DNA of 38,957 bases from an uncultured Anaerolineae bacterium (lineage in GTDB: Bacteria > Chloroflexota > Anaerolineae > VGOG01), in assembly GCA_964446635.1 (NCBI GenBank), contig CAYUPJ010000011.1, positions 1-38,957 on the forward strand. Direction: 5' to 3'. Below are positions 9,059-34,675 of the stretch, piece after piece; position 1 is the stretch's first letter, and every line of letters starts with the position of its first letter. Position numbers and translations under genes: made by a program. The notes beneath the pieces are model-generated. The model was not told the origin of the DNA. It saw nothing but the letters and a program-made list of their open reading frames with translations, and did no database searches.

Positions 9059-9112
9059 GATGTCCTCCTTTCCTAACCTTGATCCGGATACTACCCCAAT
9101 TTTACACCAAAG

Positions 9113-12546: not shown

Positions 12547-12580
12547 AAGGGGAGACCGCGTGGTCTCCCCTTTCTTTTCT
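12547..12580. terminator. Bidirectional rho-independent terminator between the convergent ptp and HNH genes
   Basis: aaggggagacc gcgt ggtctcccctt forms an 11-bp perfect stem with a T-rich tail (tcttttctc). Confidence 0.7.
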
Positions 12581-13095
12581 CACCATACTTCTATGAACTG
12601 TTGCCACTCCTTGCTTTCTTTCAGGTAGCGGCCGAAGAGGTACATGTTTGTGGCGTGGGGTTCGTAGGGCTGTTGCAGCAACTGCATGTGGGCCTCCTGG
12701 AGGGTTCGGCCGCCCTTGCGACGGTTGCAGTCCGGGCACGCGCTCACCAGGTTTTCCCAACGATGCTGTCCCCCGTGGTGACGTGGGACAACGTGATCCA
12801 CCGTCAAGTTATTTGATTGCCGCCCACAATACTGGCAAGTGTAGTTATCCCGCCGGAAGATCTCTTTCTTAGTGAGCTTCACCCGCGGGCGAGGTCGCCC
12901 GATCATGTAACCCAGCTTGATCACCGAGGGGCACAAAAAGGTAGTGGAAGGAGTGCGGATAACTCCTCGGCTATTCTCCAAGACCTCGGCCTTGCCCACC
13001 ACGACCAGGGTGATGGCCCTCTTGACGTTGCAGACATGCAGCGGCTCGTAGTTTAGATTGAGGACAAGAACTGGGGAATCTAACAGGCCGTTCAA
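12580..13095 (-). CDS. HNH endonuclease
   Basis: CQYCGRQSNNLTVDHVVPRHHGGQHRWENLVSACPDCNRRKG is a complete HNH motif with flanking Zn-binding cysteines. Confidence 0.8.
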   Translation of the reverse strand: MNGLLDSPVLVLNLNYEPLHVCNVKRAITLVVVGKAEVLENSRGVIRTPSTTFLCPSVIKLGYMIGRPRPRVKLTKKEIFRRDNYTCQYCGRQSNNLTVDHVVPRHHGGQHRWENLVSACPDCNRRKGGRTLQEAHMQLLQQPYEPHATNMYLFGRYLKESKEWQQFIEVW

Positions 13096-16270: not shown

Positions 16271-16632
16271 CGTTGACCTCCTGGACTAGCTCCCACCTGA
16301 CGAAGACATGGTGGTTTCGGAAGTGTAACAGGCTTTTCAGCCTCTGTTAGAGTTCCTTTCAGTATACCATAAAACCGTAAAAAACAGAAGTGACTCTTTG
16401 CTGGAGGTGTATTTCAGTTTTGTGTAACGTGTTTTGACAACTTCGCCCGAGCGTCTTCAGTGGCACCGAACAACGCGGATCGTGCATCGAAAGGGGTAGC
16501 CGAAGGCCAATTCATTACATAATCGCATCCTTCGATACGGTCTTGACCACATCCCGGCTTGCTCAGAGTACTCAACACCAATCTGACAGAAATCTGCTCC
16601 CAAAGTGAAATGCACCTTGCACTGGGTCTTAG

Positions 16633-16661
16633 TTGACAAAATCGCAAAATTATGATATACT
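16633..16661 (+). promoter_or_regulatory. sigma70-type promoter (TTGACA - 17 nt - TATACT) upstream of the HTH gene
   Basis: ttgaca at 16633-16638 and tatact at 16656-16661, in an AT-rich leader. Confidence 0.5.
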
Positions 16662-16709
16662 TTGTATGCTGAATATAGCTATCATGTTCTATACTCATAG
16701 GAGTAGATC

Positions 16710-17177
16710 GTGCAATATACTTCTGAGCAGACCTACACAACTGCTACTCTGTGCGAGATGTTCAATATCTCTAGGAGTACACTCTTTCGCTGGGAGCGAC
16801 AAGGTAAACTACCATCGGGTGATCCTTTTCCGCCAGTCAGCCGCGACGTGAATGGGCAACGGCAATACAGCTGGAAGCACCGGGCGGCTATCGCAAAATA
16901 TCAGCTTAAAAGACGGTTCGAGCAAATTGCTAGCGCAGAGGATCAGGCCTATGCAATAGATAACGTGGACATAGTATGGGAACAGCTCTCTCTGTACAAG
17001 TTCATAGAGCTGAGGGATAGCACCGGACTACGTGAGCTATCAGAACGTCCAACACTAGCGCCTGATATTATTCATCAACTGCTCCGAGAGGCAACGAAAT
17101 ATCATCCATCGGAAGAGATGTTCTGCCAGATAGTGAGTTTAGTATACAACAAAGCTTGTTCACATCAAACGGTCTAG
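16710..17177 (+). CDS. HTH DNA-binding protein (MerR/excisionase-like N-terminal helix-turn-helix)
   Basis: YTTATLCEMFNISRSTLFRWERQGKLP is a classic MerR/AlpA-type HTH. AT-rich gene. Confidence 0.55.
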   Translation: MQYTSEQTYTTATLCEMFNISRSTLFRWERQGKLPSGDPFPPVSRDVNGQRQYSWKHRAAIAKYQLKRRFEQIASAEDQAYAIDNVDIVWEQLSLYKFIELRDSTGLRELSERPTLAPDIIHQLLREATKYHPSEEMFCQIVSLVYNKACSHQTV

Positions 17178-17203
17178 CTGTCCACAATGCAAGGGATTTC
17201 GAA

Positions 17204-18523
17204 ATGTCGGAGATGCTAAGCGACCGCCGAGAAGCCCAAAAGGGTCTACTGGACGCCTTGACATCTGCAACAGGTTTGCCGACCGGGTTGTACGAGGAAC
17301 GAGATGGCCGAATGGCGACACTTTTCTCGGACCTATCCTTGGACAAGTTTGAGCCACACTGCAAATTCATTCAACAGTTCCCAAGAGGCAAGGAGGTCTG
17401 CGACGTCGACCAGTGCATCCGGGCCAAGAGGGTGGCCATAACCGGCACTGAGGACCAAACCTTGTGCTGGGCTGGTCTGTACAATCAGGCCATTCCGGTT
17501 ATTGTGGACGGGGTAGTGAAAGCCGTGTTGCTGTACGGCGAGATGCAGATCGAGGGAGAAGAATACCGCGAGAGTAGCCTACAAAGGCACGAGCAGGCGG
17601 TCTCCAGGCTGAAACTTAGTAGCGCTGAGGCAGCCGAGTTGCGCAAATTGCTGCTCCAAGCCAAGAAGTATACGCCCGAGGAACTTGATTTGGTAAAGGC
17701 TACATTCTCTAGAGTGTCTCGATTCTTTTACCGAATGTTTGAGGAGGAAGAGCGCTTCAGACAGGGTGTTGAACAGTTCAGGTCCAGCGTGGAGAAGATC
17801 ACACACGAGGTACAGACACGATTGCAGCCCGTACTGGCCAACGCTGAGAACCTGTTGACAGAGTTCCACACTTTAAGTGAGAAGGAGCGAGAGGCCGGAG
17901 TGAAAGAGGTGCTCAACAGCGCACTCGCGCTGGCGACTATGCTCAATAACTGGGGGCAGTTTCAGGAAGCGGACCACTTTGAGGAACAACCGCTTGAGAC
18001 ACTTCTGTATGAAGCCAAGCGGATCTACGCCGCTGAAGCACAGCGCCGGGGGATTAGCATTCGCATTGATCTTCGGCCCGTGGATGGGCGGCCAGTGGTC
18101 CTACCTATCTCCCGCCCTCACCTTCAACTCGCCCTGAACAACATTGTCCACAACGCTATTAAGTACTCCTTCCGCAGCGGGCCTGGCCGGACACGCCATA
18201 TCGAGATCACAGGTCGGCAGTTCGGTCGGTACTACGCTGTCAGTGTCCAGAACTATGGCGTGGGCATCCTGCCGGAGGAGATCGAGAGCCGAAGTATCTT
18301 CGAAGATGGCGTCCAGGGCAAATTGACACAGGGCGAGTACCGGACCGGATCTGGCAAGGGATTGTATTTTGCTGAACAGGTCATTCACCGTCACTATGGC
18401 AGGATCTCGGTCAGCAGCAAACAGATGAGCGACGAGGTGGAATCGGAGGGTGAGCCTCACTTGAACGAATTCACTGTGCTTCTTCCGCTTGAAAGGTCGA
18501 AGGAGGAACAGTCAGATGCCTAA
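17204..18523 (+). CDS. cytoplasmic sensor histidine kinase (N-terminal Cys-containing sensory domain, DHp H-box, HATPase_c)
   Basis: H-box ITHEVQTRLQPV. N-box LALNNIVHNAIKYS. G1 VQNYGVGI. G2 TGSGKGLYFAEQ. No TM helices. N-terminal region has conserved Cys residues (HCKF, CDVDQC, CWAGL). ATG 17204 follows AAGGGA; the track TTG is at 17156. Confidence 0.7.
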   Translation: MSEMLSDRREAQKGLLDALTSATGLPTGLYEERDGRMATLFSDLSLDKFEPHCKFIQQFPRGKEVCDVDQCIRAKRVAITGTEDQTLCWAGLYNQAIPVIVDGVVKAVLLYGEMQIEGEEYRESSLQRHEQAVSRLKLSSAEAAELRKLLLQAKKYTPEELDLVKATFSRVSRFFYRMFEEEERFRQGVEQFRSSVEKITHEVQTRLQPVLANAENLLTEFHTLSEKEREAGVKEVLNSALALATMLNNWGQFQEADHFEEQPLETLLYEAKRIYAAEAQRRGISIRIDLRPVDGRPVVLPISRPHLQLALNNIVHNAIKYSFRSGPGRTRHIEITGRQFGRYYAVSVQNYGVGILPEEIESRSIFEDGVQGKLTQGEYRTGSGKGLYFAEQVIHRHYGRISVSSKQMSDEVESEGEPHLNEFTVLLPLERSKEEQSDA

Positions 18524-18920
18524 GACTATTGTCTGGATCGAGGACGACACGGACATCATTGATCCGGTGGTACGGCCACTGGAGCGGGCTGGCTATCGCT
18601 TCGAACGGCTACGCACAGCTAAAGAGGCGCTAGACAGGTTGGACATCATCCGAGGCAGCGACTTGATTGTGCTCGATTTGATCCTGCCGCCGGGTGGAAT
18701 GGATCGCAAGTTTAGCTGTTATCCTGGTCTAGACTTGCTGCAGGAGCTACGGGAGCAACATGGCATCACCCAACCAGTAGTCGTCCTCAGTGTTGTGAGG
18801 AATGAAGAGACGTTCGAGAAACTACGTGCTTTGGGGGTGGCCGATGTGATCACCAAGGCAGTTCTGCCATCTGAATTGAAGGGAAGGGTGCAGAAGGTGT
18901 TGGAAGCCAACGAACAGTAG
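18516..18920 (+). CDS. single-domain response regulator (CheY-like receiver)
   Basis: IVWIEDDTDI...SDLIVLDLILP...VVVLSVV...TKAV carries the receiver acidic pocket, phospho-Asp, Ser and Lys signatures. GGAGGAA RBS. Overlaps the kinase stop. Confidence 0.75.
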   Translation: MPKTIVWIEDDTDIIDPVVRPLERAGYRFERLRTAKEALDRLDIIRGSDLIVLDLILPPGGMDRKFSCYPGLDLLQELREQHGITQPVVVLSVVRNEETFEKLRALGVADVITKAVLPSELKGRVQKVLEANEQ

Positions 18921-18964
18921 CTCTTACAGAATCTTCTTTAGCTTATTCACCGTGGGTCTTTGAA

Positions 18965-18996
18965 CCGCCAGTGTGGTTGCGCTGGCGGTTTTTTGG
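18965..18996 (+). terminator. rho-independent terminator after the response-regulator gene
   Basis: ccgccag tgtggttgcg ctggcgg tttttt. Confidence 0.75.
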
Positions 18997-19032
18997 TTTC
19001 ATCGCAAGAACCTTAAAATTTTGACTGATCTC

Positions 19033-19061
19033 TTGACAATATCTGAGGTATGTGGTATAAT
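19033..19061 (+). promoter_or_regulatory. perfect-consensus extended -10 sigma70 promoter (TTGACA - 17 nt - TGgTATAAT)
   Basis: ttgaca at 19033-19038 and tgg tataat at 19053-19061, about 115 nt upstream of the 19179 ATG. Confidence 0.65.
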
Positions 19062-19178
19062 GTATATAGTTACTATATGCACTATACTATAATCACTAAA
19101 TATCCCCATGCAAGGGTATTGATTCTGGCGGGGGTAGGCCATCCATAGTTTTATTTGTGATATGATGGGAGGAAGACT

Positions 19179-20420
19179 ATGTCTGCCTCGGCTAACGATG
19201 ATTATTCGCTGGTTAACGATAATCATTCGCCATCGCTCGTTTCCAAACCGCACTGGATCGCTTTCGTGAAATCGTTGTTCAGAGCGCTTCCTGTCGCGGT
19301 CGTCATTGCCGGTCTTTGCGCCCTTCTGGGAGGCGTTTATCACCTCAGCATGCTTGGGCTGTCGTCTTTGCCGCTTGCCCCTTTGCTGCGTGCTTTCTGG
19401 CTATGGCAAAACGATTATGCAGAATTTCGCAACGGGCGTATGTATCGCCGCAAGGATCCTTTTGGCTATCGCGTTGTAGCCAAAAACTATAGCTGGGTTG
19501 ATTGGCATTACAGGCAATCCTGGCTGGGACAATGTCTGGATTACGGTGACCTCGTGATAGGTTCAGGAGAGAATGCCGAGCGTATCCCGTGCCGTGGCCA
19601 TTTCAGCGAACTTCGCAACTTCTTAGAGAACGGAGGAACCTCTTCGCAGGCTCATACGCAAACGCAGGGTCAAAACGGCGGCTGTTTGACTTACTTGATT
19701 GTCCTAGTCCTGCTGATTGGAGTCCCTACACTTTACATTCTCAACAACCTACGCCGTCCCAGTCTCATACGGGGCACTACCCCAGGCATAGTACCTGCTT
19801 CACAAGTCTCGGACTTTCCCTTCAATAGGCAGCGTCCTCTCTACTCAGCCACCGAGTCTTCGAACTCTTCACCGGATCCCTCAATTCTCACATCGAATCC
19901 GGGCGCCGAACTACTTTCTCAATCTCTCACTGTGCCAGTGCTACATCCATGCTTCGAGTTGATGCAGGATAACTATAGCATCAATGGCCTGCTTGGTTGG
20001 GTGCCTGGGAAAACACCGCGTCCCGCTGTCTACCTTGGCAATGGGCACATGCTCCTGGGGATTTCTTCAGGTGCCGATGTCCGTAGCTATTCCTCGATGC
20101 GTCAGCATCTTACGATCCCAAACGACGCAAACCGGATTGTCCTGTCCTTCAAGTACTTTCCACACACTAACGACATTAACGGTGGCGACTGGTTCCAGGC
20201 CCTTATCCTGGATACCAACCTGAAGCCTTTGGTTGCAATTCTCAAATTCGCGTCGGATACTCGGGGGGCAAATGCGCAAGATTGGACATACATAAAAGAG
20301 TATGATGTGGCGGGCTTAGCTGAGCGCTCTGTATATGTCTATTTCAACGTAATCAACGACGGCGATGGTCTACCGAGTTATATGGACGTGAAAGACGTGT
20401 CTGTATCGGTCTGCCGGTGA
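19179..20420 (+). CDS. hypothetical membrane protein (two N-terminal TM helices, a further central TM, Ser/Pro-rich linker, C-terminal beta-rich domain)
   Basis: GGGAGGA RBS. TM segments ALPVAVVIAGLCALLGGVY and CLTYLIVLVLLIGVPTLYIL. No family recognised. Confidence 0.55.
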   Translation: MSASANDDYSLVNDNHSPSLVSKPHWIAFVKSLFRALPVAVVIAGLCALLGGVYHLSMLGLSSLPLAPLLRAFWLWQNDYAEFRNGRMYRRKDPFGYRVVAKNYSWVDWHYRQSWLGQCLDYGDLVIGSGENAERIPCRGHFSELRNFLENGGTSSQAHTQTQGQNGGCLTYLIVLVLLIGVPTLYILNNLRRPSLIRGTTPGIVPASQVSDFPFNRQRPLYSATESSNSSPDPSILTSNPGAELLSQSLTVPVLHPCFELMQDNYSINGLLGWVPGKTPRPAVYLGNGHMLLGISSGADVRSYSSMRQHLTIPNDANRIVLSFKYFPHTNDINGGDWFQALILDTNLKPLVAILKFASDTRGANAQDWTYIKEYDVAGLAERSVYVYFNVINDGDGLPSYMDVKDVSVSVCR

Positions 20421-20469
20421 ACTCGGACACAGTGCGCACCTAATCAACCGAAGATCACTCATAGCATAA

Positions 20470-20528
20470 AGGGCTGGGATTTGACTCCCAGCCCTCTGTT
20501 TTGCAAAGGAAAGCTTTTGTGATATAAT
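20470..20528 (+). promoter_or_regulatory. terminator hairpin (20470-20503) immediately followed by a TTGCAA - 16 nt - TGaTATAAT promoter (20501-20528)
   Basis: agggctggga tttgac tcccagccct ctgttttg, then ttgcaa...gtgatataat. Confidence 0.55.
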
Positions 20529-20561
20529 AAATGTAGATATCGGCATAAGAAGTCCGTTCTC

Positions 20562-21242
20562 ATGCCTCTTATAGAGGTAATATTCTCGCATTTTGGCCAG
20601 CGAAGAGGTGAGAGCGTGGTACATTCTGTCGTTTCTACCAGAGCGAGCAATGAGGGTCGCCGTGAGCGGATTCTGCAACTATACTATGACCGCTTGCGTG
20701 ACCTAACGAACTTCTTCTTCGCCGTCAACGCCCTGCTCATCGGGTTGGTAGTGCAATTCGCTCACGATGACCTCCAACAGTTGCTCCTGGCCGTTCTCGG
20801 CTATTCTGGTTCGGTAGCCACACCTTGCATCTATAAGGGTTTTCTCTCGTTGCGCTCGTACCGTGAGGACATGCGCCCGCTGGAGGAATCGCTGGACTAC
20901 GACATTTCTGGGAAGTATGAAAAGCGACTGAAGGGCACGCCGGTGGGGATTGTACGAGTAGCCCTTGTGCGGCTGTGCTTCAGTTTTTTGTTTGCGGGCT
21001 TCTATTTCGCTGCCATTATCTACTTTTTCTACAGGTTATCTGCACTGTATTGCCTCACTCCCCCGTGGTTTAATCTCCTCCTGGGTATTAATCATCTTCA
21101 TGCTAATCTGCTACGTTCCTTGGGTCATTTTTCAACGTCCCGGCAGGCCGGGAGTGATTTGGGCCGTGGTGCGAACGACATAGTGGAGGGAGGTGTAGTT
21201 CATCTTCTGATAAGGAGAAATCAACATGGCTCTATCCCATGA
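20562..21242 (+). CDS. hypothetical membrane protein (start uncertain; in-frame GTG alternative at 20615)
   Basis: Hydrophobic helices FFFAVNALLIGLVVQFA and LCFSFLFAGFYFAAIIYFFY. Overlaps the start of the SIR2 gene by 17 nt. Confidence 0.45.
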   Translation: MPLIEVIFSHFGQRRGESVVHSVVSTRASNEGRRERILQLYYDRLRDLTNFFFAVNALLIGLVVQFAHDDLQQLLLAVLGYSGSVATPCIYKGFLSLRSYREDMRPLEESLDYDISGKYEKRLKGTPVGIVRVALVRLCFSFLFAGFYFAAIIYFFYRLSALYCLTPPWFNLLLGINHLHANLLRSLGHFSTSRQAGSDLGRGANDIVEGGVVHLLIRRNQHGSIP

Positions 21243-23601
21243 AGAAATACGACGCCTCGCTTCCACATTGCGAAAGCAATCACCGGAAGACCGAGAGCTG
21301 TTTGTGAAAATTCTACGGACGGAGGATGTTCTTCCTGGACTCCGAGAGTTACCAGAGGAAGAGCTGAAGGAGTTTCTCGATCTATTGCCTGCCGCTCTAG
21401 CTGAGGAACTACGTAAGGCGCTGGCCGGAGTGGAGATACCGCCGGAACTGATAGACGAGATCCTGCGAGGAAACTGCGTCCTCTTCTTGGGGGCCGGTGT
21501 CTCCTTTGAGGCAGGAATGCCTTCTTCACAACAATTGGTCCGAGCTTTGGGGTACGATCCTAACAATGTGCCCCTAACAATAGCAGCGCAACAATTTGAG
21601 ACTAAACAGGGGCGGACAGAGCTTTGCACCATCATCAAGCGAGAATTCGAGATAGCTGACAAACGTAAGAAATCAGGAAGCTATCAATTCATCGCTAACA
21701 TACCCAAGTTGAACAGCCTAATCATCACTACTAACTACGATAGACTGCTGGAAGAGGCGCTCAAGCGAGAAAAGAAAACACCTTTGACAATCTGTAGGGA
21801 GGCTGAGTTGCCTTCGACGACCGGCCAACCCCATGTGATAGTCAAGCTTCACGGCGACATAGATCAATCCGAGACCGTAGTTATCACCCAAGGAGATTAC
21901 GCACGTTTAGCAGCAAGGCTGCGGGAGCCGGGCGGGTTCGGTGGCTTCCTGGCAACCATTCTTTCCACGCGGATAGTGATCTTCGTCGGGTTCAGCATGG
22001 CCGACGAGGACTTCCGCCTGATCCGCGATTTTATAACTACCCGGATGATTGACTTCGTCGGACGACGCACCCTCAAGCCCCCCTATGCCATCATGCCATG
22101 GGGGGAAGCAGAGGCCAAGGTGCTCGAAAGCCAATTGAACATCAAGGTCATTCGCGGCGAAGCAAAAGACTTCTTCGCCGCCATCTTTCGCCGCACCAGC
22201 GAATTCCTGAATCGGGAGGATGAATTGCGGGAGGTATGCGAGGTCCGAAAGGAACCATTCGTGGAGATTGTGGGTCCTGCTGGCTCCGGCAAGACGATGC
22301 TTTTGAGTGGCATAGAGACCTTCTATCGGATTCAGCGAGGCTTTAACCTGATAGTTTCCATCGCTTTGGAGGAAAAGGAAACCCCTCAAATGCTATCGCG
22401 GCGGCTGGCTGACCAATATAAATTGAGTTTAGATAAATTGGAGGATGACTTAAGAGGGACCTTAGTTCTTTTCACTTTCGACGGAACTGAAAGAGCCCCT
22501 GAGGCTGTACGTTGGCTGGAGCGGGAATTGCTGCCCAGATTAAGAAGAATATGGACCACGGATCTACACACCGACCTGGAGTTGGGCAGTGGGCGGGTGA
22601 TCTTCGCCGGCCGGCAGCATTTCCTTTGGCAATCCGTCACCCGGTTCCACCTCTATTCGCTGATCCTGACTCCTTTCCCGCACGGTGCCGTTGAAGATAT
22701 GGCCGGGAAGTATTACTTCCTCTTCAGGAGAGAAATGCCCTCAGCTCTAGAGAAGAAACGAATCGCCCAGGCTATTCTATCCCTCACCGGCACGGGACAC
22801 GCCGGGTTCATCAAAACCGTTCTGTACAAGATCACTGATGACAAGAAACTGCCAAAGGAGCAATATCCTTCGGCGGCCGATCTGGTCCGCTATATCGAAG
22901 AGCACACCGATGAGTTTCTCGAATGGAAACTGGTGCCTCAACTAAACAATGAGATTTTGAAAGGGGCAGAAGAACCTATCTTGCGGTCATTAGAGGATGT
23001 AATTTGTGTCTTCCGTCGTCTCAACAATTCGATTTTAACGAGTTTGCCCCAAAGAGGACTGGATCAATATGGTGTAGACGAGACCTGGTTCACCAAACCG
23101 GACGCGCTACTGAGAGCACTAGATAGTCTGCATATATTGAGCAAACCGGATGCCCGCAGCCCGATGTATCGGCTGGATCCGGTAGTGGGCTTTCTCCTCT
23201 CCGCGTGGCTCAGAAGAAAGAATTCAGGGGAGCTTTATCGCAAAGACCACGAGGTCGCGCTGGACATCTGCGACGAAGGAGTGCAACGCACTCCTAACCA
23301 TTTCCAGTTGGCCTATGCTCTAGAGGGGCTATATCACTTGCAGTGCCTGCGAGAAATCGGGGCCAGCCAGGTGGAACTGGCCGACAAAGCCAGACAATAC
23401 CTGGGTCAATTACGAGGAGCTGAGAATGGAAAGGCATTGGCCATGCAATGGAAAGATGTGGTCATGGAGGATCCCGATCTGAGGTGGAAAGTAGAAGAAG
23501 AAGCCAGAAGGCTCGACAGAACACCGGAGGAGAGGGAAGAGTGGTTGGCTAAGGTTTATGAAGCGCTAACCGCTGCCTTTGACAAGTATCTAGCCCCATG
23601 A
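21226..23601 (+). CDS. SIR2_2 (DHS-like NAD-binding) domain fused to a P-loop NTPase
   Basis: SIR2_2 motifs CVLFLGAGVS, LIITTNYDRLLEEAL, VKLHGDIDQ, IFVGFSMADEDF. Walker A is EIVGPAGSGKTMLL and the probable Walker B is LVLFTFDGTE. AAGGAG RBS. Confidence 0.75.
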   Translation: MALSHEEIRRLASTLRKQSPEDRELFVKILRTEDVLPGLRELPEEELKEFLDLLPAALAEELRKALAGVEIPPELIDEILRGNCVLFLGAGVSFEAGMPSSQQLVRALGYDPNNVPLTIAAQQFETKQGRTELCTIIKREFEIADKRKKSGSYQFIANIPKLNSLIITTNYDRLLEEALKREKKTPLTICREAELPSTTGQPHVIVKLHGDIDQSETVVITQGDYARLAARLREPGGFGGFLATILSTRIVIFVGFSMADEDFRLIRDFITTRMIDFVGRRTLKPPYAIMPWGEAEAKVLESQLNIKVIRGEAKDFFAAIFRRTSEFLNREDELREVCEVRKEPFVEIVGPAGSGKTMLLSGIETFYRIQRGFNLIVSIALEEKETPQMLSRRLADQYKLSLDKLEDDLRGTLVLFTFDGTERAPEAVRWLERELLPRLRRIWTTDLHTDLELGSGRVIFAGRQHFLWQSVTRFHLYSLILTPFPHGAVEDMAGKYYFLFRREMPSALEKKRIAQAILSLTGTGHAGFIKTVLYKITDDKKLPKEQYPSAADLVRYIEEHTDEFLEWKLVPQLNNEILKGAEEPILRSLEDVICVFRRLNNSILTSLPQRGLDQYGVDETWFTKPDALLRALDSLHILSKPDARSPMYRLDPVVGFLLSAWLRRKNSGELYRKDHEVALDICDEGVQRTPNHFQLAYALEGLYHLQCLREIGASQVELADKARQYLGQLRGAENGKALAMQWKDVVMEDPDLRWKVEEEARRLDRTPEEREEWLAKVYEALTAAFDKYLAP

Positions 23602-23628
23602 GCTGTTTTGCCGTTTTAGGAGGATAAC

Positions 23629-26600
23629 ATGGCTATAGAGAATCTAGTTACGCGAAGACTTCACTGGCTAATTGGTCGCCAGAAAGAGAAAGAGGGTATT
23701 GCCCGTGCCATTAAGGGCCAAGGGCCACCAATCCTCTTCCTGGAGGGCATCGCCGGCATTGGAAAAACGGTTCTCCTGGAAGAAGCCAGTCGTATAGCCC
23801 AAGAGTATGGAGCCCTCTGCCCGCCCATCATAGACTTCTACGATACCGATATGCACGCCCACCGGTCTCTGGAGGCGGCCATTGCCCTAAGCCTGGATCC
23901 AAAAAAGAAGGCTTTCCAAGACTATTGGACCCGGCGAGAACAGATGGAACGTACTATGCTGCCGGAACGCAAGACCCAGAAGGAGCAGGAGAAGGAACTC
24001 TGGGGGCTCTTCGTGAAGGGATACACCAACGTGGCAGAGAACCAACGGGTGATGCTGCGTTTCGATACGGCCGAGCGCCTGGAGTACGAACGGGATTCCC
24101 AAGAAGTCTTGACGGATTGCGAGGTCTCGCCTCAGGATGCCCCCAGTTGGGAATGGCTCCTAGAGCGCATCGGCGATCTAGAGAACACAACCTCCCTCAT
24201 TGCCAGCCGTCCCACAGATCTCCTGAAGCAGAGACTCCTTATAACACATGAGGGGCGTGTTCTTACCCTTGAGGTGAAAGGGTTCACTATAGAGGAGACG
24301 GAGGCCTATTTCCGGGCTACCGATTTCGGCAAACAAGTAGCCGATGAGTCCCCAGAGATGGTGAGCAAGGTCCACCTGCTCACCGATGGACGGCCTATCC
24401 TGATCGCCCTGGCCCTGGACTGGCTGCAACGGGGGATGTGGGAACGGCACATCTACCCGGTCAGCCTGGAAGAATTGAGAACTTTGAAGGAGCAGGCTCA
24501 GGAAGAGGAAAAATCCAACCGAAGAGGTGAGGCCTGGTGGAGATGGGACGAGATCAAGCATAGTTTTGAAATCGCTCTGGTGCAGCAGATCCGCAACCTG
24601 AACCACACAGGTCTGGATGTGGCGGTGAAATATACTGCTCTAGCCCGCAGGGGATGCAATGCCGAGCTTCTCTCTCGCCTAATATGGATTTCTCTGGAAG
24701 AGGTAAAGGGATTGGTAAAGCAGCTCCTGACCCTTTCCTTCGTCAGACCGTCACGTGGTCCCCGTAATCTTTTCTTTTTACACGATGAAATGTATGATCT
24801 GGTGGAAAAATATATCTGGCTGGTGGACTGGCCCGATTGCAGTGAGCAGGCCCGGTTAGACAGAGTCATCATAGAGTGGTATACAGAACAAATAGAGGAA
24901 CTCAAGAAGCGTATCAAAACCTCTCGGGACTGGCGGGAACGGGCCGCCTTACGTAGTCAGCAACAACTTCTGACGGCCGAGCGTTTGTACTACCAGCATG
25001 ATGAGGACCCACGGCTCGGCTATCGTGAATACAGCCACTTAGACGAGGAGGCCGTTGGCTCCCGTGAAAACGAATGGGACGTTATGTTGCGAAACGAGGC
25101 TCTGTGGTTCACATCTCACCGGGCTTGGCGGCAGGGGAAATCGATAAGCGTAGTTGGGGGAGAATATCCCCTTCGTGATCCTGCGTGGGTGAGAAATGGT
25201 AAAGTAGAGCGCAGCCCTGCAGTGGATCACGATTGTCGGCGTCGCTGGGTTAACCGCTACATCGCTCGAAATGAGATGGAGAAAGCAGCCCGTGTTGCTG
25301 AGAATCTTCTCAAGAAGGAACCTCGTGAGGGGGAACCCGAATTATACCGAGGTGGTGTACTAATCGCCCTGGCTACGGCCCAGGCGTACATGGGCGGCGA
25401 ATTCTTGGAGCCAGCTCTTCGGAACTTCCAAGAGGGCATTCAACGCTTGGAGAGCGCTCCAGAGGAACACAAGGAACCATGGCTGTATCCCTACCTCTTG
25501 GCCACAGCATACCTCTATCAAGGCTTGGCCCTGCGTAACTCCCTTCGCCTCGGTGAAGCAGTCCGGTCTTATAGTCAGGCCATGCTCCATTATCGGAGCA
25601 TCGGCTACCAAGCCGGCTTGGCTGAGGCGATGAACAACCTGGCCTACATCTACGCCCGCCAGGGACGGCTGGATCAGGCCCTAGCTTCTTGTGAAGAGGC
25701 CCTGCGCATTCGGCAGGAATTGGGTGACGAATATAATGTTGCCCTTAGTCTCAACACCAAAGGGATCGTCTACGAACGGATGGACCGGCCCCTCACGGCT
25801 ATCCACAATAGCGAGCAGGCCTTGGCCCTTTTCAAGGAGATCAACAACGAACGGGGCATCATCCTGGCCGAGATCAACCTGGGACGCTCCTATCGCCGTA
25901 AAGCTCGTAGTCCTGAATGGGGTCAGAAAAACGAAGACTTTGAGGTAGGAAGAGGACACCTGGAAGACGCCATCTACCGGCAGGAGCAAATGGGGGCCAG
26001 CGCCGAGATGTTCTATCGGATCGAGGCCCACAATGAGCTGGGCTGCCTCTATCGGGATTGGGCGGCGACGTTGGTTGACAAGGGTATCAGAGACAGCAGC
26101 AAATTGCTAGAACACCTGGGAGAAGCCGAAAGCCATCTGAATAGAGCCATCGGTCTGGCCACCCAAGAGGGGCAGATACTAACGCGCCATGCAGTGCAAT
26201 ATGCCGACTCTCTGGAGGACTTGGCCCGCGTATACTACTGGCGTGGGAAGTTGGGATTCTCTGTAGGTTCCTGGGCTAAGCAACGTGGCTTTGACAGGCC
26301 TCTGCAGGCGATGAAGAGCCTTCTCGATGAGGCAAAGAGATTGATAGAGGAACGCCTGAAAGAGTGGGAAGAGCTGCGTCTCATCGTGGGCAAAACCCAT
26401 CACCAGTATGCCCGGCTGGCAAGAGAGGAAGCAGAGGAGGAGTCAAAGAGAGACAAACTCGATTACGTTGCTAAGCACTACGCTTGGGCAGCGGCTCTCT
26501 TGGAGAGTTATTCTTTCGATGCGCCTGAATTGCGCAAGACAGTGGCCGATGCCTGTGAGTGGCTGTGTACGCTTCAGCCTCAGGAAGCGAAAGAGCGGGT

Positions 26601-26733
26601 TGAGCAAATGCATTCTACCCTGAAGGCCGACGGGCAAAAGAGCGAGAGATTGAAGGACTGGGTCAACAGTGTTGTTTATCCTCGCCTCGGTGTAGGCTGG
26701 CCTGAGGAAGGGCCGGAGGTGGCCCATGGGTGA
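23629..26733 (+). CDS. STAND-type P-loop NTPase with C-terminal TPR repeat array
   Basis: Walker A is FLEGIAGIGKTVLLEEA and Walker B is VMLRFDTAERL. The C-terminal half has about 8 TPR-like repeats (AYLYQGLALRN..., AEAMNNLAYIYARQGRLDQALASCEEAL, ALSLNTKGIVYER...). GGAGG RBS. Confidence 0.75.
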   Translation: MAIENLVTRRLHWLIGRQKEKEGIARAIKGQGPPILFLEGIAGIGKTVLLEEASRIAQEYGALCPPIIDFYDTDMHAHRSLEAAIALSLDPKKKAFQDYWTRREQMERTMLPERKTQKEQEKELWGLFVKGYTNVAENQRVMLRFDTAERLEYERDSQEVLTDCEVSPQDAPSWEWLLERIGDLENTTSLIASRPTDLLKQRLLITHEGRVLTLEVKGFTIEETEAYFRATDFGKQVADESPEMVSKVHLLTDGRPILIALALDWLQRGMWERHIYPVSLEELRTLKEQAQEEEKSNRRGEAWWRWDEIKHSFEIALVQQIRNLNHTGLDVAVKYTALARRGCNAELLSRLIWISLEEVKGLVKQLLTLSFVRPSRGPRNLFFLHDEMYDLVEKYIWLVDWPDCSEQARLDRVIIEWYTEQIEELKKRIKTSRDWRERAALRSQQQLLTAERLYYQHDEDPRLGYREYSHLDEEAVGSRENEWDVMLRNEALWFTSHRAWRQGKSISVVGGEYPLRDPAWVRNGKVERSPAVDHDCRRRWVNRYIARNEMEKAARVAENLLKKEPREGEPELYRGGVLIALATAQAYMGGEFLEPALRNFQEGIQRLESAPEEHKEPWLYPYLLATAYLYQGLALRNSLRLGEAVRSYSQAMLHYRSIGYQAGLAEAMNNLAYIYARQGRLDQALASCEEALRIRQELGDEYNVALSLNTKGIVYERMDRPLTAIHNSEQALALFKEINNERGIILAEINLGRSYRRKARSPEWGQKNEDFEVGRGHLEDAIYRQEQMGASAEMFYRIEAHNELGCLYRDWAATLVDKGIRDSSKLLEHLGEAESHLNRAIGLATQEGQILTRHAVQYADSLEDLARVYYWRGKLGFSVGSWAKQRGFDRPLQAMKSLLDEAKRLIEERLKEWEELRLIVGKTHHQYARLAREEAEEESKRDKLDYVAKHYAWAAALLESYSFDAPELRKTVADACEWLCTLQPQEAKERVEQMHSTLKADGQKSERLKDWVNSVVYPRLGVGWPEEGPEVAHG

Positions 26734-27733
26734 TTGCGCCTGCGATGTAAGAGCAGACCAGCTCGATCCTTATGCGCCGCTGTCCCATTTCTTTCTGGAA
26801 CTTACCACCGAGTGTAACAACGCCTGTCCCGGTTGTGGCAGCATCTATGCCCATCAGAAGAACGCGCATCCACTGCCCGCAGCCGATTGGCGCACTGTGA
26901 TCGACCGGCTACTGCCCATGACCCCTTGCCTGCGGCTCACGGGTGGGGAGCCTACGCTACACCCTGAGTTTGAGGAGATTGTCGCATACGTCAATGCCCA
27001 AGGCATTCCATTTACCGTCTTTACCAATGCCCGGTGGGAGGACCCGGATGCCGTGATCCGCATTATGGCGGATAAACAACATCTAGAGGGTATCTTGGTG
27101 TCCATTCACGGGGCACGGGCTTCCTCTCACGAAGCATTCACTGCGGCTCCTGATTCTTTTGACGAAGCGGTGGATAATACTCGCCGAGCGTCCGAGGCAG
27201 GGGTACGGGTTGTGACCAGCACTGTCATCACCCACCAGAACTATCACGAAATAGAAGAGATTGTGGCACTAACCCAAGCCATTGGGGTGGATCGAGCGAC
27301 GTTTAGCCGTTTCATTGGACCGCCTTTGCCCGAGATCGAGACAAGCGAAGGTGAGCTCGAAGTGGCTGTGCAGGCTATCGAGCTATTAATAGATAATGGA
27401 CACTATCCCGAAGGTGGCGGAGAGGCGATTCGCTACGGGGCGCCCATTCCCCGTTGTTTTACTGACAATCGTTCCAACGGGTGTATGGCGGGGTTCGTCC
27501 ATGCAACCATTGATCCGTGGGGGAACTTGCGACCATGCCCTCACGTGCCAATAATCGCGGGTAACGTGTTGGAACAAGACTTTGATACAATCTGGTATTC
27601 TCTGACTATGGAAACTTGGCGGAAGGGACTGCTGGCTCAGTGTGATGGTTGCCCCATCGCGGGTGAATGTCGCAGCGGATGTCAGGCACAGGCCATGTGG
27701 AGAAAGACATTGCGGGATCCACTTATTCAGTGA
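26726..27733 (+). CDS. radical SAM enzyme with C-terminal SPASM/twitch Cys-rich domain
   Basis: CNNACPGC is the CxxxCxxC radical-SAM cluster motif and GGEP is the SAM-binding motif. The C-terminal cysteines CFTD...CMAG...CPH...CDGCPIAGECRSGC fit a SPASM-like auxiliary-cluster domain. The start overlaps the upstream stop (ATGGGTGA). Confidence 0.85.
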   Translation: MGDCACDVRADQLDPYAPLSHFFLELTTECNNACPGCGSIYAHQKNAHPLPAADWRTVIDRLLPMTPCLRLTGGEPTLHPEFEEIVAYVNAQGIPFTVFTNARWEDPDAVIRIMADKQHLEGILVSIHGARASSHEAFTAAPDSFDEAVDNTRRASEAGVRVVTSTVITHQNYHEIEEIVALTQAIGVDRATFSRFIGPPLPEIETSEGELEVAVQAIELLIDNGHYPEGGGEAIRYGAPIPRCFTDNRSNGCMAGFVHATIDPWGNLRPCPHVPIIAGNVLEQDFDTIWYSLTMETWRKGLLAQCDGCPIAGECRSGCQAQAMWRKTLRDPLIQ

Positions 27734-27754
27734 TTCCTGTGGTTGAATGCTCGC

Positions 27755-27790
27755 AGCCCGCTGCTAAACCCAGCAGCGGGCTGTTTTGTT
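27755..27790 (+). terminator. rho-independent terminator after the radical SAM gene
   Basis: agcccgctgct aaaccc agcagcgggct gttttgttg. Confidence 0.75.
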
Positions 27791-27973
27791 GTACAATCAT
27801 CGCCAGGTTGATTGCATCTTCCAGACCCGATCTCGAATCGATCAAGGGGCACAGAAAAGGGGCTATCCTAAACCCAAGACAGCCCCATGCTCTTGAATCA
27901 ACGCTTGCTAATCTGGTCTTTCCTCCCTACACCACCTTCTCCCTCACCTTGGCGCTGGCGTAGTCCAGAGCGG

Positions 27974-29190
27974 CTACCACGATGGCCCACGTTTGTTTTC
28001 ACCATCCTCCTCGGCTACAGCCGACTGGGCTGCGGCGTACACTTCGGCCAGAGGCACGCCGTGTTCCCGCGCGATCCGCGCGCAATCTTCGTATTCTGGG
28101 GCGGAGGCGAGGGTTTCATCGCCAAGCAACTTCTCTTTGACCCGGACTGCGCCCCACGCAGTCTGGACCTCTCGCACCCTTCGCCCGGCCTTCCAGCGGT
28201 GCAGGGGTGGGGTGATGCGCAGGCCCAGGGTCGGGGTTTCGCGCAGGACAATAAGTCCCAGGGTCTCGGCCTGGCCTGCTGGAGCCAATACGGAGAGCAT
28301 GGTCGCCGGGCGGTTCTTCTTCATGAAGATGGGGGTGAACCATACGTCCAGGGCGCCGGCGGCGAACAAACGCTCCATCGCGTAGCCCAGGGCCTCGCCG
28401 GTGACGTCGTCCAGGTTGCATTCCAGGAGCACGACCTGGTCTGCCTCGGTCGGCGCGGGATGGAACGGCTCGCCCAGCCAGACGCGCAGGCTGTTGGGCC
28501 AGGGAAACTCCTTGTCACCGAAGCCGATCCCCACAGCCTGGACTTTCATCGGGGGGCGTTGGAAACGGGCCAGCTCGGCCAGGAGGGCGGCCGCAGTGGG
28601 GGTGACCAGCTCGGTTTGGGCGGGATGGGGCACGGTCGGCGCTCCCACTTCGGACAGGAGGGCCAGGGTGGCCGGTGCAGGCACTGGCAGGAGGCCGTGC
28701 TCGGTTTCGATAAACCCGCTGCCCAATGGCAGGGGCGAGGCGTAGACCGCTGTCACGTCCAGGACGTGCAGCCCGGCCACTACCCCCACGATGTCCACGA
28801 TGCTGTCCACCGCACCGATCTCGTGGAAATGGATTTCGTCTTCAGGGATGCCGTGCACGCGAGCCTCGGCGCGGGCCAGCCGTGCGAATACGGCCCGGCT
28901 GCGGGCTTTCACTTCGGGGGGAAGGGCGCTGACCTCGATGATGGCGTACACGTCCCGTGGATGGCGAGCGGGGCGTGCGCCCAATGTATCGCGCACGTGG
29001 AGCTTGCTACCAGCCATTCCGTGGCGCACCTGGCGTTCCAGCTCCAGCTCGTAGCCCTCCAGATGGAGCTTGTTCAACTCAGCTTGCAGGCGTTCCAGCG
29101 GTAGTCCCGCATCGAGTAGCGCGCCGAGCAGCATGTCGCCGCTGGCCCCACTGAAACAGTCAAAGTAAACGATTCGTGACGCTATGGTAC
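27974..29190 (-). CDS. larC: nickel-pincer cofactor biosynthesis protein LarC (nickel insertase)
   Basis: IVYFDCFSGASGDMLLGALLDAGL, HFHEIGAVDSIVDIVG, PLGSGFIETEHGLLPVPAPA, NLDDVTGE and MKKNRPATML are collinear with L. plantarum LarC. The true start is unclear (no ATG near SRIVYFDC); the track start runs through the TGCGTGT repeat. Confidence 0.85.
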
Positions 29191-29727: not shown

Positions 29728-29783
29728 CCACGCAACACGCAATACGCACCACGCAATACGCACCACGCAATACGCACCACGCC
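29728..29783. repeat. ACGCAAY/ACGCACC heptamer x8
   Basis: accacgcaacacgcaatacgcaccacgcaatacgcaccacgcaatacgcaccacgcc. Reverse-complement family of the 29214-29243 array; together they flank the four-helix-bundle gene. Confidence 0.8.
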
Positions 29784-30536: not shown

Positions 30537-31380
30537 GCTTCAGAACCTCGTTCATGCTGCCGGAACGGAAGCCAGCCAGGTCGAGGGCCACGTAGACGTA
30601 GCCCAGCTCCCGCAGGCGAGCCACGATGCGGGCCCGCGCATCTTCGGCCAGCAGACGCGACCAGTCGGCGGTTTCGATCTCCAGGCGGGCGACAGGATGG
30701 TGGTCACGCACGCGGAGACTCTCCAGCCCGAACTCGGCGCGCAGGAAGGCCTCCGCTGCCTCCACGCGGTGCAGCCCTTCCCCGGTGAGCTGTGTGCCAT
30801 AGGGAAAGCGGGTGGCCAGGCAAGCCTGGGCAGGCCGGTTCCACACGGCTAGCCCTTTCTCGCGGGCCAGTCGGCGTATCTCCGCCTTGGTCAGCCCGGC
30901 CTCCAGCAGCGGGGCGCGCACGCCCAACTCCTGGGCAGCGCGGTTGCCCGGCCGATAGTCGCCCGCGTCGTCGGCGTTGGCGCCGTGGACCACGTGGGCC
31001 TGCCCTGAGCCCCGTCGAAGGGCCAGCCCTTCTTCCTGGGCGCTGGCGATGATGGCGGCCAACACCTCGCGCTTGCACCAATAGCAGCGGTCCGGAGGGT
31101 TAGCGGAGAAACGAGGGTTGTCCAGCGGGTGGAGGCGGATGGTGCGATGGCGCACGCCCAGGTGGTGGGCAAGCTCACGCGCGGCGGCGATTTCCTCGCG
31201 GGGATGAATCTCGGCGTCGGCAGTGACGGCCAGCACGTTTTCCGAGCCGAGCACGTCCAGGCACTCTGCCAGCAGATAAGTGCTGTCCACCCCGCCGGAG
31301 AAGGCTACTACGGCGCTGCCGATCTCAGCGATAATCTGCCTCAGGCGCGCCGTCTTTCGCCCATTCGCCCATTCGCCCAT
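30529..31380 (-). CDS. larE: ATP-dependent sacrificial sulfur transferase LarE (PP-loop ATPase)
   Basis: PP-loop VAFSGGVDSTYLL. CYWCKRE. ACLATRFPYGTQLT corresponds to the LarE sacrificial Cys loop (SCSVSSRFPYGT). C-terminal YVALDLAGFRSGSMN. The N-terminus is ambiguous: three in-frame ATGs lie inside the CATTCGCCC nonamer repeat. Confidence 0.8.
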   Translation of the reverse strand: MGEWANGRKTARLRQIIAEIGSAVVAFSGGVDSTYLLAECLDVLGSENVLAVTADAEIHPREEIAAARELAHHLGVRHRTIRLHPLDNPRFSANPPDRCYWCKREVLAAIIASAQEEGLALRRGSGQAHVVHGANADDAGDYRPGNRAAQELGVRAPLLEAGLTKAEIRRLAREKGLAVWNRPAQACLATRFPYGTQLTGEGLHRVEAAEAFLRAEFGLESLRVRDHHPVARLEIETADWSRLLAEDARARIVARLRELGYVYVALDLAGFRSGSMNEVLKHD

Positions 31381-31429
31381 TCGCTCATTCGCCCATTCGC
31401 TCATTCGCCCATTCGCCCATTCGCCCATT
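31356..31429. repeat. CATTCGCYC nonamer x8 at the 5' end of larE (in-frame, period 9)
   Basis: cattcgcccattcgcccattcgctcattcgcccattcgctcattcgcccattcgcccattcgcccatt. On the minus strand it encodes MGEWANGRMSEWANERMGEWANGR. Confidence 0.85.
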
Positions 31430-34560: not shown

Positions 34561-34675
34561 ATCGGGAAACTGGGAAACTGGTAAATTGGGACACGATTCA
34601 CCAACCTACCAATTTACCAATCTGCCAATCTACCAACCTACCAATTTACCAATCTACCAATTTACCAATCTACCG
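34553..34675. repeat. GGAAACT/GGTAAAT heptamers then ACCAAYYT octamer x9, an inverted pair
   Basis: actggtaaatcgggaaactgggaaactggtaaattggg ... accaacctaccaatttaccaatctgccaatctaccaacctaccaatttaccaatctaccaatttaccaatctacc. ggtaaattgg is the reverse complement of ccaatttacc. Confidence 0.8.

Follow-up and report, generated by a model that had tools for sequence, protein, structure and literature searches.

A four-gene operon of an uncultured Anaerolineae bacterium joins a SIR2-NTPase and a STAND-TPR protein to a radical SAM/SPASM enzyme: a candidate peptide-modification-controlled conflict system

Within a 38,957-nucleotide contig of an uncultured Anaerolineae bacterium (assembly GCA_964446635.1, contig CAYUPJ010000011.1; this whole stretch is referred to below as the window) lies a four-gene operon of 7.3 kb, whose products are a small membrane protein (gene 0), a SIR2 domain fused to a nucleoside triphosphatase (NTPase; gene 1), a STAND (signal transduction ATPase with numerous domains) NTPase with C-terminal tetratricopeptide repeats (TPR; gene 2), and a radical S-adenosylmethionine (SAM) enzyme with a SPASM domain (gene 3). 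We read this operon, with a probability of about 0.6, as a conflict system—for defence or for cell death—in which peptide modification would control a STAND switch and the outcome would be the depletion of NAD. The reading leans on a short [D/N]-C-A-C motif (CxC below) that is probably the substrate of the radical SAM enzyme, and on the conservation of the STAND-TPR and radical SAM genes as a constant core, beside which the SIR2-NTPase behaves as a swappable module.

Structure of the operon

An initial annotation of this DNA had described a three-gene operon. Its open reading frames (ORFs) are present at 21226-23601, 23629-26733 and 26726-27733, and Pfam recovers SIR2_2, TPR_12, Radical_SAM and SPASM from them; the count of three falls short, with a fourth, 8xMP-like gene lying upstream inside the same bracket of promoter and terminator signals. 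As judged from these signals, a promoter-like site and bracketing hairpins, the unit is a four-gene operon of about 20.50-27.79 kb, with the following features:

20470..20495, + strand: terminator-like hairpin (10-bp stem, 7 GC pairs, T-run), the left operon boundary, ending the preceding unit
20500..20528, + strand: promoter-like site, TTTGCA, 17 nt, TG-TATAAT (extended -10), 10/12 matches, by consensus match alone
20562..21242, + strand: gene 0, 8xMP-like small membrane protein (GTG 20616 the likelier start)
21226-23601, + strand: gene 1, SIR2-NTPase, 791 amino acids (aa)
21727..21852, + strand: SIR2 catalytic motifs TTNYD (Asn170) and KLHGD (His209), aligned with TTNYD/KMHGD of ThsA
22273..22296, + strand: Walker A motif GPAGSGKT of gene 1, by motif and weak AAA_22/NB-ARC/NACHT matches
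23629-26733, + strand: gene 2, STAND NTPase-TPR, 1034 aa
26726-27733, + strand: gene 3, radical SAM/SPASM enzyme, 335 aa
26732..26743, + strand: D-C-A-C core motif, gene 3 residues 3-6 (MGDCAC), the proposed tethered substrate
26813..26836, + strand: CX3CX2C radical SAM cluster motif (C30, C34, C37), invariant in alignment A1
27455..27682, + strand: SPASM domain with seven invariant Cys (C244, C253, C271, C306, C309, C315, C319), by Pfam and alignment
27753..27784, + strand: intrinsic terminator-like hairpin after gene 3 (13-bp stem, 9 GC pairs, T-run)

The genes are closely packed. The end of gene 0 overlaps the start of gene 1 by 17 nt, genes 1 and 2 are separated by 27 nt (23602-23628) with TAGGAGG preceding the gene 2 ATG, and genes 2 and 3 share an 8-nt start/stop overlap, ATGGGTGA, with GGAGGTG upstream. 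Gap, overlap and Shine-Dalgarno-like sequences thus all bear out the coupling that had been proposed earlier, and through the ATGGGTGA overlap gene 3 is translationally coupled to gene 2. An overlap of the same 8 nt occurs in five related loci (L001, L004, L005, L006, L173; loci from the survey described below are designated L, and proteins P).

A radical SAM/SPASM enzyme with a candidate substrate at its N-terminus

Gene 3 matches Pfam Radical_SAM (E 1.5e-18) and SPASM (E 4.8e-8), both above cut-offs, in agreement with its first description as a radical SAM enzyme with a Cys-rich, SPASM-like C-terminus. No eighth SPASM Cys ligand was seen in alignment A1 beside the seven invariant ones. The substrate Cys of CteB is bound at an auxiliary cluster that has an open site; the seven-Cys pattern of gene 3 would fit an open auxiliary-cluster site of this kind, and with it a Cys-directed chemistry. 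The AlphaFold2 (AF2) model of gene 3 has a predicted local distance difference test (pLDDT) score of 87.3, and its nearest solved folds are SuiB (E 1e-17, template-modelling (TM) score 0.75-0.78), SkfB, BlsE, PqqE and CteB, a ranking with which the sequence searches agree. The closest full-length SPASM enzymes also include the cofactor makers MftC and PqqE. In NCBIfam no family reaches its cut-off for gene 3, for its relatives with a recognition element (see below) or for the precursors; the best for gene 3 by score are AhbD, NirJ, MftC and PqqE, at values such as 95 bits against a cut-off of 500, 83 against 265 and 71 against 381, and the enzyme, with no model near its cut-off, falls outside the housekeeping families against which it was compared.

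Two more specific assignments of gene 3 were considered and rejected. A viperin-like reading finds in PADLOC a pVip match that covers the generic radical SAM core alone (aa 25-190, 42 bits, E 1.8e-11), in an enzyme that does have a SPASM domain and from which viperin folds are more distant (TM ~0.60, ranked 12th or lower). A reading as an anaerobic sulfatase maturase (anSME) finds a fold similarity of TM 0.71 and NCBIfam scores far below the cut-offs.

The N-terminus of the enzyme is where we place the candidate substrate. Window-type enzymes start MGDCACDV in alignment A1, and in a set of 70 of these proteins G-D-C-A-C is all but invariant (entropy 0-0.6 bit), followed by about 15 highly variable residues (2-3 bits). 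Because the third codon positions of the CxC motif vary, it is the peptide that is constrained. In more distant enzymes the N-terminal motif is missing, a C-terminal extension of about 105 residues is present, and the motif is found elsewhere in the locus. It stands at the C-terminal end of small ORFs situated just upstream of the radical SAM gene in L020 (..NDCACE), L015 (..NCACK), L088 (..CACDCACA), L091 (..NQCACE), L092 (..CDCACTGQK) and L102 (..CECGCG); L008 and L018 have less strict forms of it. A GNAT acetyltransferase bears it at its C-terminal end in L016 (..SDCACE), and the effector NTPase has 'LGDCAC[S/P]' about 40 residues in from its start in L007, L066 and L089. The separate precursors are 52-81 aa long, with good ribosome-binding sites, an LxL.[F/Y]FP-like leader and the CxC at the C-terminus. 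A six-frame scan of the window for [DNE]C[ADGSN]C gave a long-ORF match only at the radical SAM N-terminus, and no plausible small precursor ORF was found in 20.4-21.2 kb or 27.7-27.9 kb. The Cys-rich precursor that the initial annotation had not spotted is thus no separate ORF in the window; its putative core would be the MGDCAC of gene 3 itself.

The C-terminal extension of the more distant enzymes is, by its modelled fold, a recognition element of the kind found in the biosynthesis of RiPPs (peptides that are ribosomally synthesised and then modified post-translationally). An AF2 model made from 20 tails (pLDDT 88.5) has the order strand-strand-strand-strand-helix-helix-helix. Its top Foldseek matches are the recognition element of PbtF (8t19; probability 1.00, TM 0.61), TruD and PqqD (5sxy), with LynD, ThcOx and McbB and then TbtB, MccB and SuiB behind them, all of which contain recognition elements; a PDB profile search of the tail ranks PqqD first at a value that is not significant (E 0.28). 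Gene 3, with its 335 aa and a 16-residue tail, has no such element. Across 109 full-length enzymes the two characters are nearly complementary: 76 have the N-terminal motif and no recognition element, 28 have the recognition element and no motif, three have both, behind a long leader such as MKITLVD..., and two have neither. Motif fusion and loss of the recognition element each change at least five times on a neighbour-joining tree.

Read from their sequences, these forms make up a natural series, from a separate precursor, through a leader-core-enzyme-recognition element protein, to the core-enzyme arrangement of the window. Such a series is what one would predict if the CxC motif is the substrate, since an enzyme with a tethered core could do without leader recognition. 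We consider it probable, and more so than the reading of the whole operon, that the motif is indeed what the radical SAM enzyme acts on. It had been suggested that the enzyme makes or modifies a nucleotide or peptide signal; the peptide half of that suggestion is favoured by the RiPP-maturase folds and by the recognition element and precursors of the relatives, and the nucleotide half less so.

A constant STAND-TPR and radical SAM pair

Gene 3 has 476 relatives at E <= 1e-10, all of them metagenomic, with taxon labels that are those of the bins of metagenome-assembled genomes (MAGs). All fetched loci were surveyed by phmmer with the window proteins as queries. Among the matches listed from additional pattern scans, few were close relatives and many were unrelated radical SAM genes, and loci L025-L087 and L106-L169 from these scans were set aside as such.

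The contexts of relatives at 72, 61, 75, 54 and 50% identity to gene 3 are all SIR2-NTPase / STAND-TPR / radical SAM, and three of the five also contain 8xMP; the same arrangement, mostly with 8xMP, describes L001, L003, L004, L005, L006, L173 and the locus of P0141. More widely, practically all family loci with upstream sequence (about 30, among them L001-L012, L014-L018, L020, L023, L066, L088-L090, L092-L095 and L097) have a gene 2 homologue immediately upstream of their radical SAM gene. The pair is kept down to about 33% radical SAM identity and is found also in Candidatus Electrothrix and in a Cytophagia-labelled MAG. In loci without the pair the sequence breaks off no more than about 1.3 kb away from the radical SAM gene. 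L024 and L103 offer 2.5-3 kb upstream of it with no phmmer match to gene 2, the latter with an ORF of >971 aa there and the former fragmented, and we regard both as ambiguous, not contrary to the pairing. When gene 2 is the starting point, its homologues with 64% and 50% identity lie in [8xMP]-SIR2-NTPase-STAND-TPR-radical SAM cassettes, and one at 25% lies outside such a cassette. Approached from either gene, then, this is a real conserved unit and not a chance adjacency, a point that the initial annotation had left to synteny.

None of the genes flanking the operon (a histidine kinase, a response regulator, a 413-aa protein, LarC and a MerR-like protein) is conserved among the loci compared. 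Because flanking genes differ between loci, the cassette moves as a module; because none is conserved, we do not count them as part of the system. The named hosts are largely filamentous and multicellular: Anaerolineae and other Chloroflexota, Amarolinea, cable bacteria and Desulfonema.

One close relative has a discordant label. In L004 (GCA_048938245.1, JBHLMJ010000023.1) the radical SAM protein is 75% identical to that of the window and the bin is named 'Promethearchaeota archaeon'; since the other close relatives are all Chloroflexota, the label suggests either an artefact of binning or a transfer of recent date. Upstream of the STAND-TPR gene, L007 and L089 have in common a GNAT gene and a conserved protein of 311-314 aa.

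The constant partner, gene 2, has a Walker A motif (GIAGIGKT) at aa 40 and no effector domain. Pfam finds TPR_12 (E 2.8e-23), with NACHT and AAA_16 below threshold. The description of gene 2 as a STAND-like P-loop protein with a C-terminal TPR array is upheld; where about eight repeats had first been counted, Pfam resolves three TPR_12 stretches. Two variants suggest, by their domain content, further effector types: P0182, a gene 2-type protein of 1336 aa with an N-terminal metallophosphoesterase fused to STAND-TPR, and, in L173, a gene for a Ras/Roc GTPase-metallophosphoesterase (62-2515) close upstream of the cassette.

The SIR2-NTPase and its replacements

Gene 1, in which Pfam detected no repeats, consists of a SIR2 domain, a STAND-like P-loop NTPase and a helical C-terminal region. 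The SIR2 part matches Pfam SIR2_2 (E 3.9e-26), and the NTPase part gives weak AAA_22, NB-ARC and NACHT matches. All motifs quoted for this gene in the initial annotation were located, GAGVS at aa 89, TTNYD at 168, KLHGD at 207, FVGFS at 253 and the Walker A GPAGSGKT at 350, and the catalytic residues, for which degeneracy had been a concern, are intact: in the alignments, Asn and His fall on their counterparts in ThsA and KomC, with the His at the position of KomC H146. Among solved defence NADases the nearest to the domain, by PDB matches, are a ThsA-like protein (7uxt), KomC, ThsA and DSR2, and the PADLOC ThsA profile matches gene 1 at E 1.3e-26 over the SIR2 part alone (profile positions 13-204 of 478). 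By sequence, the SIR2 domain of gene 1 is of the defence-NADase type, with its catalytic residues in place.

Gene 1 is also the part of the operon that varies. Against L001, identity is 72% for gene 3, 63% for gene 2 and 43% for gene 0, and just 27% for gene 1. In every locus examined a second P-loop or STAND-like NTPase adjoins in the same orientation, often overlapping; it usually lies immediately upstream of the STAND-TPR gene and, in L007, L066 and L089, between the STAND-TPR and radical SAM genes. Its extra domain, N- or C-terminal, varies. That domain is SIR2 in the clade of the window, TIR in L009, L066, L088 and L089, EAD1 in L017 and EAD7 in L018, and several loci have none. Homologues with SIR2+PNP_UDP (P0126) and SIR2+NACHT+TIR (P0132) occur as well, and some loci have additional genes, for a bDLD1-NTPase (L092) or a CHAT protease (L016).

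The fourth gene, gene 0, encodes a small protein with three hydrophobic helices and a sub-threshold Pfam match to 8xMP (E 2.2e-4). Its likely start is the GTG at 20616, preceded by AAGAGGTGAG. It is 43-46% identical to 8xMP-annotated genes in the same position in L001 and L005; the position is likewise occupied in L003 and the P0141 locus, and in L006 an extra SIR2 gene takes the place of 8xMP. In the literature searched, nothing relevant was found on 8xMP or an octameric membrane protein.

The sequence just upstream of 8xMP encodes an APH-kinase-TCAD9 protein and a GAF histidine kinase both in L003 (1418-2587) and in the locus of P0141. TCAD9 is a domain of ternary conflict systems (Kaur et al., 2020; PMC7159879).

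Proposed mechanism and the points that weigh against it

A scheme that would accommodate these observations begins with the relatives, in which the enzyme would bind a [D/N]-C-A-C precursor through its C-terminal recognition element. In the subfamily of the window the motif would have been fused to the enzyme N-terminus (MGDCAC...) with loss of both leader and recognition element. Gene 3 is predicted to modify its own N-terminal tail, in cis or within an oligomer, because the motif is fused to it and leader and recognition element are lost. The likeliest chemistry would be crosslinking through Cys, for example to a thioether, or some other oxidation of Cys. The TPR array of gene 2, a peptide-binding fold, may then read the modified or the unmodified motif, and this read-out could gate a nucleotide-dependent assembly of gene 2 with gene 1 that turns on the ThsA-like SIR2 NADase and depletes NAD+. 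The 8xMP-like protein might serve as an accessory effector or an anchor. We infer the CxC motif as substrate, the chemistry, the TPR read-out, the depletion of NAD+ and the defence role; our confidence in any specific read-out of the tag is much less than that in CxC as a substrate.

Several points weigh against this scheme. The case for a conflict system is computational throughout, no PADLOC defence model matches genes 0, 2 or 3 specifically, and the immediate neighbours of the operon in the window are mostly housekeeping or signalling genes (LarC among them). Gene 3 is without leader and recognition element, self-modification in the window type is an extrapolation from relatives, and an AF2 model with residues 1-7 disordered cannot place the motif at the active site. 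CxC, or a repeated CDCDC, is moreover a classic metal-binding element. The identification of the recognition element is affected by modest Foldseek E-values (best 7.7e-3) and by the lack of a PqqD match when Pfam was run on the C-terminal tails, and the association of motif and recognition element is phylogenetically structured, its five or more events resting on a quick neighbour-joining tree. BLAST detects no paralogy between the NTPases of genes 1 and 2 (E 0.19), and because their homology is undetectable in this way, their co-assembly is an analogy. The likeness of the two-NTPase layout to the paired sensor-helper NLRs (nucleotide-binding leucine-rich repeat proteins) of plants is an analogy as well. 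Finally, with no protease or exporter in the cassette, the release of any free peptide is unexplained.

A more elaborate version of the conflict system, speculative and doubtful as a whole, is an NLR-like immune or cell-death switch gated by radical SAM modification of the CxC tag, with the TPR-STAND sensor reading the state of the tag. Such a switch could guard SAM, iron-sulfur (Fe-S) clusters or reducing power, or could emit a modified alarm peptide between the cells of a filament. In either case the maturase would continuously crosslink the CxC tag, which is its own in the window and that of a small peptide or the effector NTPase in relatives. In the guard version, new tags would stay unmodified when a phage SAM lyase or a shut-off of the host intervened, and NAD+ depletion by SIR2 would follow. 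Gene 3 would then also be the first known case of a radical SAM enzyme with a RiPP core of its own.

STAND and NLR-like proteins have a central part in bacterial, plant and animal immunity, and the known bacterial ones bind phage proteins directly. The present family would add an obligatory radical SAM peptide-modification step and split sensor and effector onto two NTPases, pointing to a different activation logic, the reading of a post-translational mark or of a modified peptide ligand. RiPP enzymology would gain a new core motif, D-C-A-C, a clean natural series that leads from separate precursor to fused core as the recognition element disappears, and a non-biosynthetic use of a maturase. 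The hypothesis is directly testable, the system being small and its point mutants clear (C4/C6, C30/C34/C37, N170/H209 and the Walker A lysines).

Alternative explanations

It is possible, though unlikely, that the CxC motif is no substrate but serves to bind a metal or an Fe-S cluster or to dock the TPR protein, and that a small molecule, perhaps a nucleotide as with viperins, is what the radical SAM enzyme turns into a signal or chain terminator. CxC and (CD)n repeats do look like metal-binding motifs, the radical SAM core does have a weak pVip match, and the nearest structures include BlsE, a SPASM/twitch enzyme that works on a small molecule. But a ligand or docking tag would not readily account for a motif whose distribution is complementary to that of a RiPP recognition element, with repeated fusion and loss, and which, in small precursors with a leader encoded directly upstream of the enzyme, occupies the place of the C-terminal core. 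The pVip match covers the generic radical SAM core alone; viperins are without SPASM and rank below SuiB, SkfB, BlsE, PqqE and CteB in the fold search. Seven SPASM cysteines without an eighth fit the open substrate-Cys site of CteB.

Less likely again is a RiPP cluster for a secreted peptide—an antibiotic, a signal or a cofactor—with the STAND-TPR protein as scaffold or regulator and the SIR2-NTPase as a bystander defence gene. The maturase-type enzyme, the recognition element and precursor peptides of relatives, and the cofactor makers MftC and PqqE among the closest SPASM enzymes are all in keeping with such a cluster, as are the TPR proteins that act in some RiPP pathways, to which there is weak TPR similarity (HaaT and FxSxx_TPR). 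A bystander, however, would hardly be expected in every locus examined, where an NTPase with a death- or immunity-type domain (SIR2, TIR, EAD1, EAD7) is adjacent, nor would a biosynthetic core be expected as a tag on the effector NTPase (L007, L066, L089) or on GNAT (L016). The cassette has no leader peptidase, exporter or immunity gene, and a core fused to its enzyme would yield at most one product per enzyme molecule, which is poor for bulk synthesis.

Chance adjacency, or a housekeeping radical SAM enzyme (an anaerobic sulfatase maturase, or one for heme or cofactor synthesis) beside unrelated NTPases, is very improbable and in effect refuted by synteny: AhbD, NirJ, MftC and PqqE lead the NCBIfam scores and LarC and other housekeeping genes are neighbours in the window, yet those scores are far under their cut-offs, no sulfatase, heme, PQQ (pyrroloquinoline quinone) or mycofactocin gene is nearby, and gene order is conserved over about 30 loci in differing flanks.

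Genomic surroundings

The operon lies inside a stretch of lower G+C content, at 15-28 kb (0.48-0.56, against 0.58-0.69 in the flanks), and this region (15000-28000) is possibly a horizontally acquired island. The stretch spans, besides the operon, a Band_7 gene, a MerR/excisionase-like helix-turn-helix gene (16710-17177), a PocR-domain histidine kinase and a response regulator (17156-18920) and a 413-aa membrane protein (19179-20420). The Band_7/SPFH protein (430 aa, 14978-16270, - strand) is encoded about 5 kb upstream of the operon. Band_7 paralogues of weak similarity, several per locus, also occur near the cassettes of L001, L004, L005, L006 and L021, and they may be either a linked accessory or common island cargo.

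About 12 kb from the operon is a type III-I CRISPR effector module (3978-10168, - strand), complete by NCBIfam; no CRISPR array was found near its genes in the window. Its features are:

3978-4991, - strand: Cas6i, by NCBIfam
4960-5844, - strand: Cas10i, by NCBIfam
5828-9058, - strand: Cas7-11i gRAMP, NCBIfam 1908 bits, full length
9113-10168, - strand: RNA 3'-phosphate cyclase RtcA, adjoining the type III-I module

A stand-alone HNH nuclease-like ORF (171 aa, 12580-13095, - strand) matches the HNH part of IscB/Cas9d at 73 bits, below cut-off. The window also contains intergenic tandem repeats of 7-8 nt at 31356-31429, 34596-34674, 29729-29782, 10287-10338 and 2251-2300, with units TTCGCCCA x9, ACCAATCT x9 and those of the ACGCAAT and TGAAACG types; 29 kb from its relative lies a second site, with a TTCGCT repeat.

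Comparison with known systems

No system model in PADLOC or NCBIfam covers the operon, and in the literature searched, with incomplete coverage, no description of the operon family was found, including for the combination of SPASM, SIR2 and phage. The system thus appears undescribed, as first proposed; the accompanying statement that no described system couples such parts was too strong at the level of kind, given a prediction by Kaur et al. (2020), the one analogue that the literature searched yielded, which is taken up at the end of this section.

With respect to the enzyme, prokaryotic viperins (pVips) are, to our knowledge, the only radical SAM enzymes established in anti-phage defence. 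Gene 3 shares with them a radical SAM core that PADLOC matches weakly; their substrates are nucleotides, a SPASM domain is absent from them, and their fold similarity is about 0.60 where that of peptide maturases is 0.75-0.78. Much nearer are the RiPP maturases SuiB, SkfB, CteB, PqqE and MftC, which have in common with gene 3 the CX3CX2C motif and seven-Cys SPASM domain and are its nearest folds, and whose recognition elements and adjacent leader-core precursors are matched in its relatives. The family differs from these maturases in having no family-level match, a recognition element that is C-terminal in the relatives and a core reduced to a four-residue CxC motif; it is, further, embedded in a STAND/effector operon, and the window type carries its own core. 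For anSME, AhbD, NirJ, PqqE and MftC themselves, scores are far below cut-offs and the window has no sulfatase, heme d1, PQQ or mycofactocin gene. A core fused in cis to its modifying enzyme, and modified within an oligomer, is known from the RiPP pathway of OphMA (borosin/omphalotin). OphMA is a SAM-dependent N-methyltransferase of fungi with a C-terminal core, whereas gene 3 is a bacterial radical SAM enzyme of unrelated sequence with an N-terminal one.

On the effector side, the SIR2 domain is most similar to those of Thoeris ThsA, DSR1/DSR2 and Kongming KomC, with the catalytic Asn and His conserved. ThsA combines SIR2 (or a transmembrane region) with SLOG/STALD, whereas gene 1 has a P-loop NTPase instead and no SLOG or Macro domain, and there is no ThsB/TIR gene in the operon or its flanks. 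DSR1 and DSR2 are proteins of about 1200 aa, with SIR2 and a large helical sensor, and the Dsr1 and Dsr2 models give gene 1 41.7 and 27.1 bits against a cut-off of 1400, over the SIR2 region alone.

The STAND component invites comparison with Avs proteins, which likewise join a STAND NTPase to a C-terminal TPR sensor, exchange N-terminal SIR2 or TIR effectors and are expected to oligomerise. An Avs protein, however, is a single effector-STAND-sensor polypeptide that binds phage proteins directly; here sensor and effector would be divided between two NTPases, the radical SAM maturase and peptide tag are obligatory in the window family, and neither gene 1 nor gene 2 matches an Avs model in PADLOC at E <= 0.01.

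Effector swapping on a conserved core, with EAD and Death-like adaptors, is a hallmark of the NTPase conflict systems of multicellular bacteria that Kaur et al. described (2020, 2021; PMC7159879, PMC8195603). The EAD/Death-linked kind of organisation is found in the relatives L018, L017, L092, L016, L009, L066, L088 and L089; the window itself has a direct SIR2 fusion and no EAD.

The closest analogue is the FxSxx-COOH / radical SAM / AP-ATPase-TPR / TIR system, itself a comparative-genomics prediction. The FxSxx-COOH peptide system is said to go back to Haft and Basu in 2011; on FxsA and FxsB the literature searched yielded nothing related. Kaur et al. (2020; PMC7159879, section 24) predicted systems of a peptide, a radical SAM/SPASM enzyme, an AP-ATPase-TPR protein and TIR, and FxSxx-COOH peptides have been tied to VMAP-ternary and stand-alone AP-ATPase systems (PMC7159879). 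Common to the two families are a radical SAM/SPASM enzyme, a STAND (AP-ATPase)-TPR protein, a TIR-bearing NTPase and a small precursor whose conserved core is C-terminal; both belong to multicellular bacteria, and both are predicted conflict systems known from comparative genomics alone. They differ in that the precursors of the present family end in CxC (..DCACE, ..NCACK, ..CACDCACA) and not in FxSxx, in that gene 3 and its relatives have no FxsB-level match and the best NCBIfam match of the gene 2-type relative in L088, FxSxx_TPR, reaches 53 bits against a cut-off of 300, and in that no zincin-like metallopeptidase gene is found in the window operon or the loci examined. FxSxx-COOH systems are actinobacterial, whereas those described here are from Chloroflexota, cable bacteria and Desulfonema, with two NTPases that have SIR2, TIR or EAD heads and, in the window type, a core fused to the enzyme and a lost recognition element.

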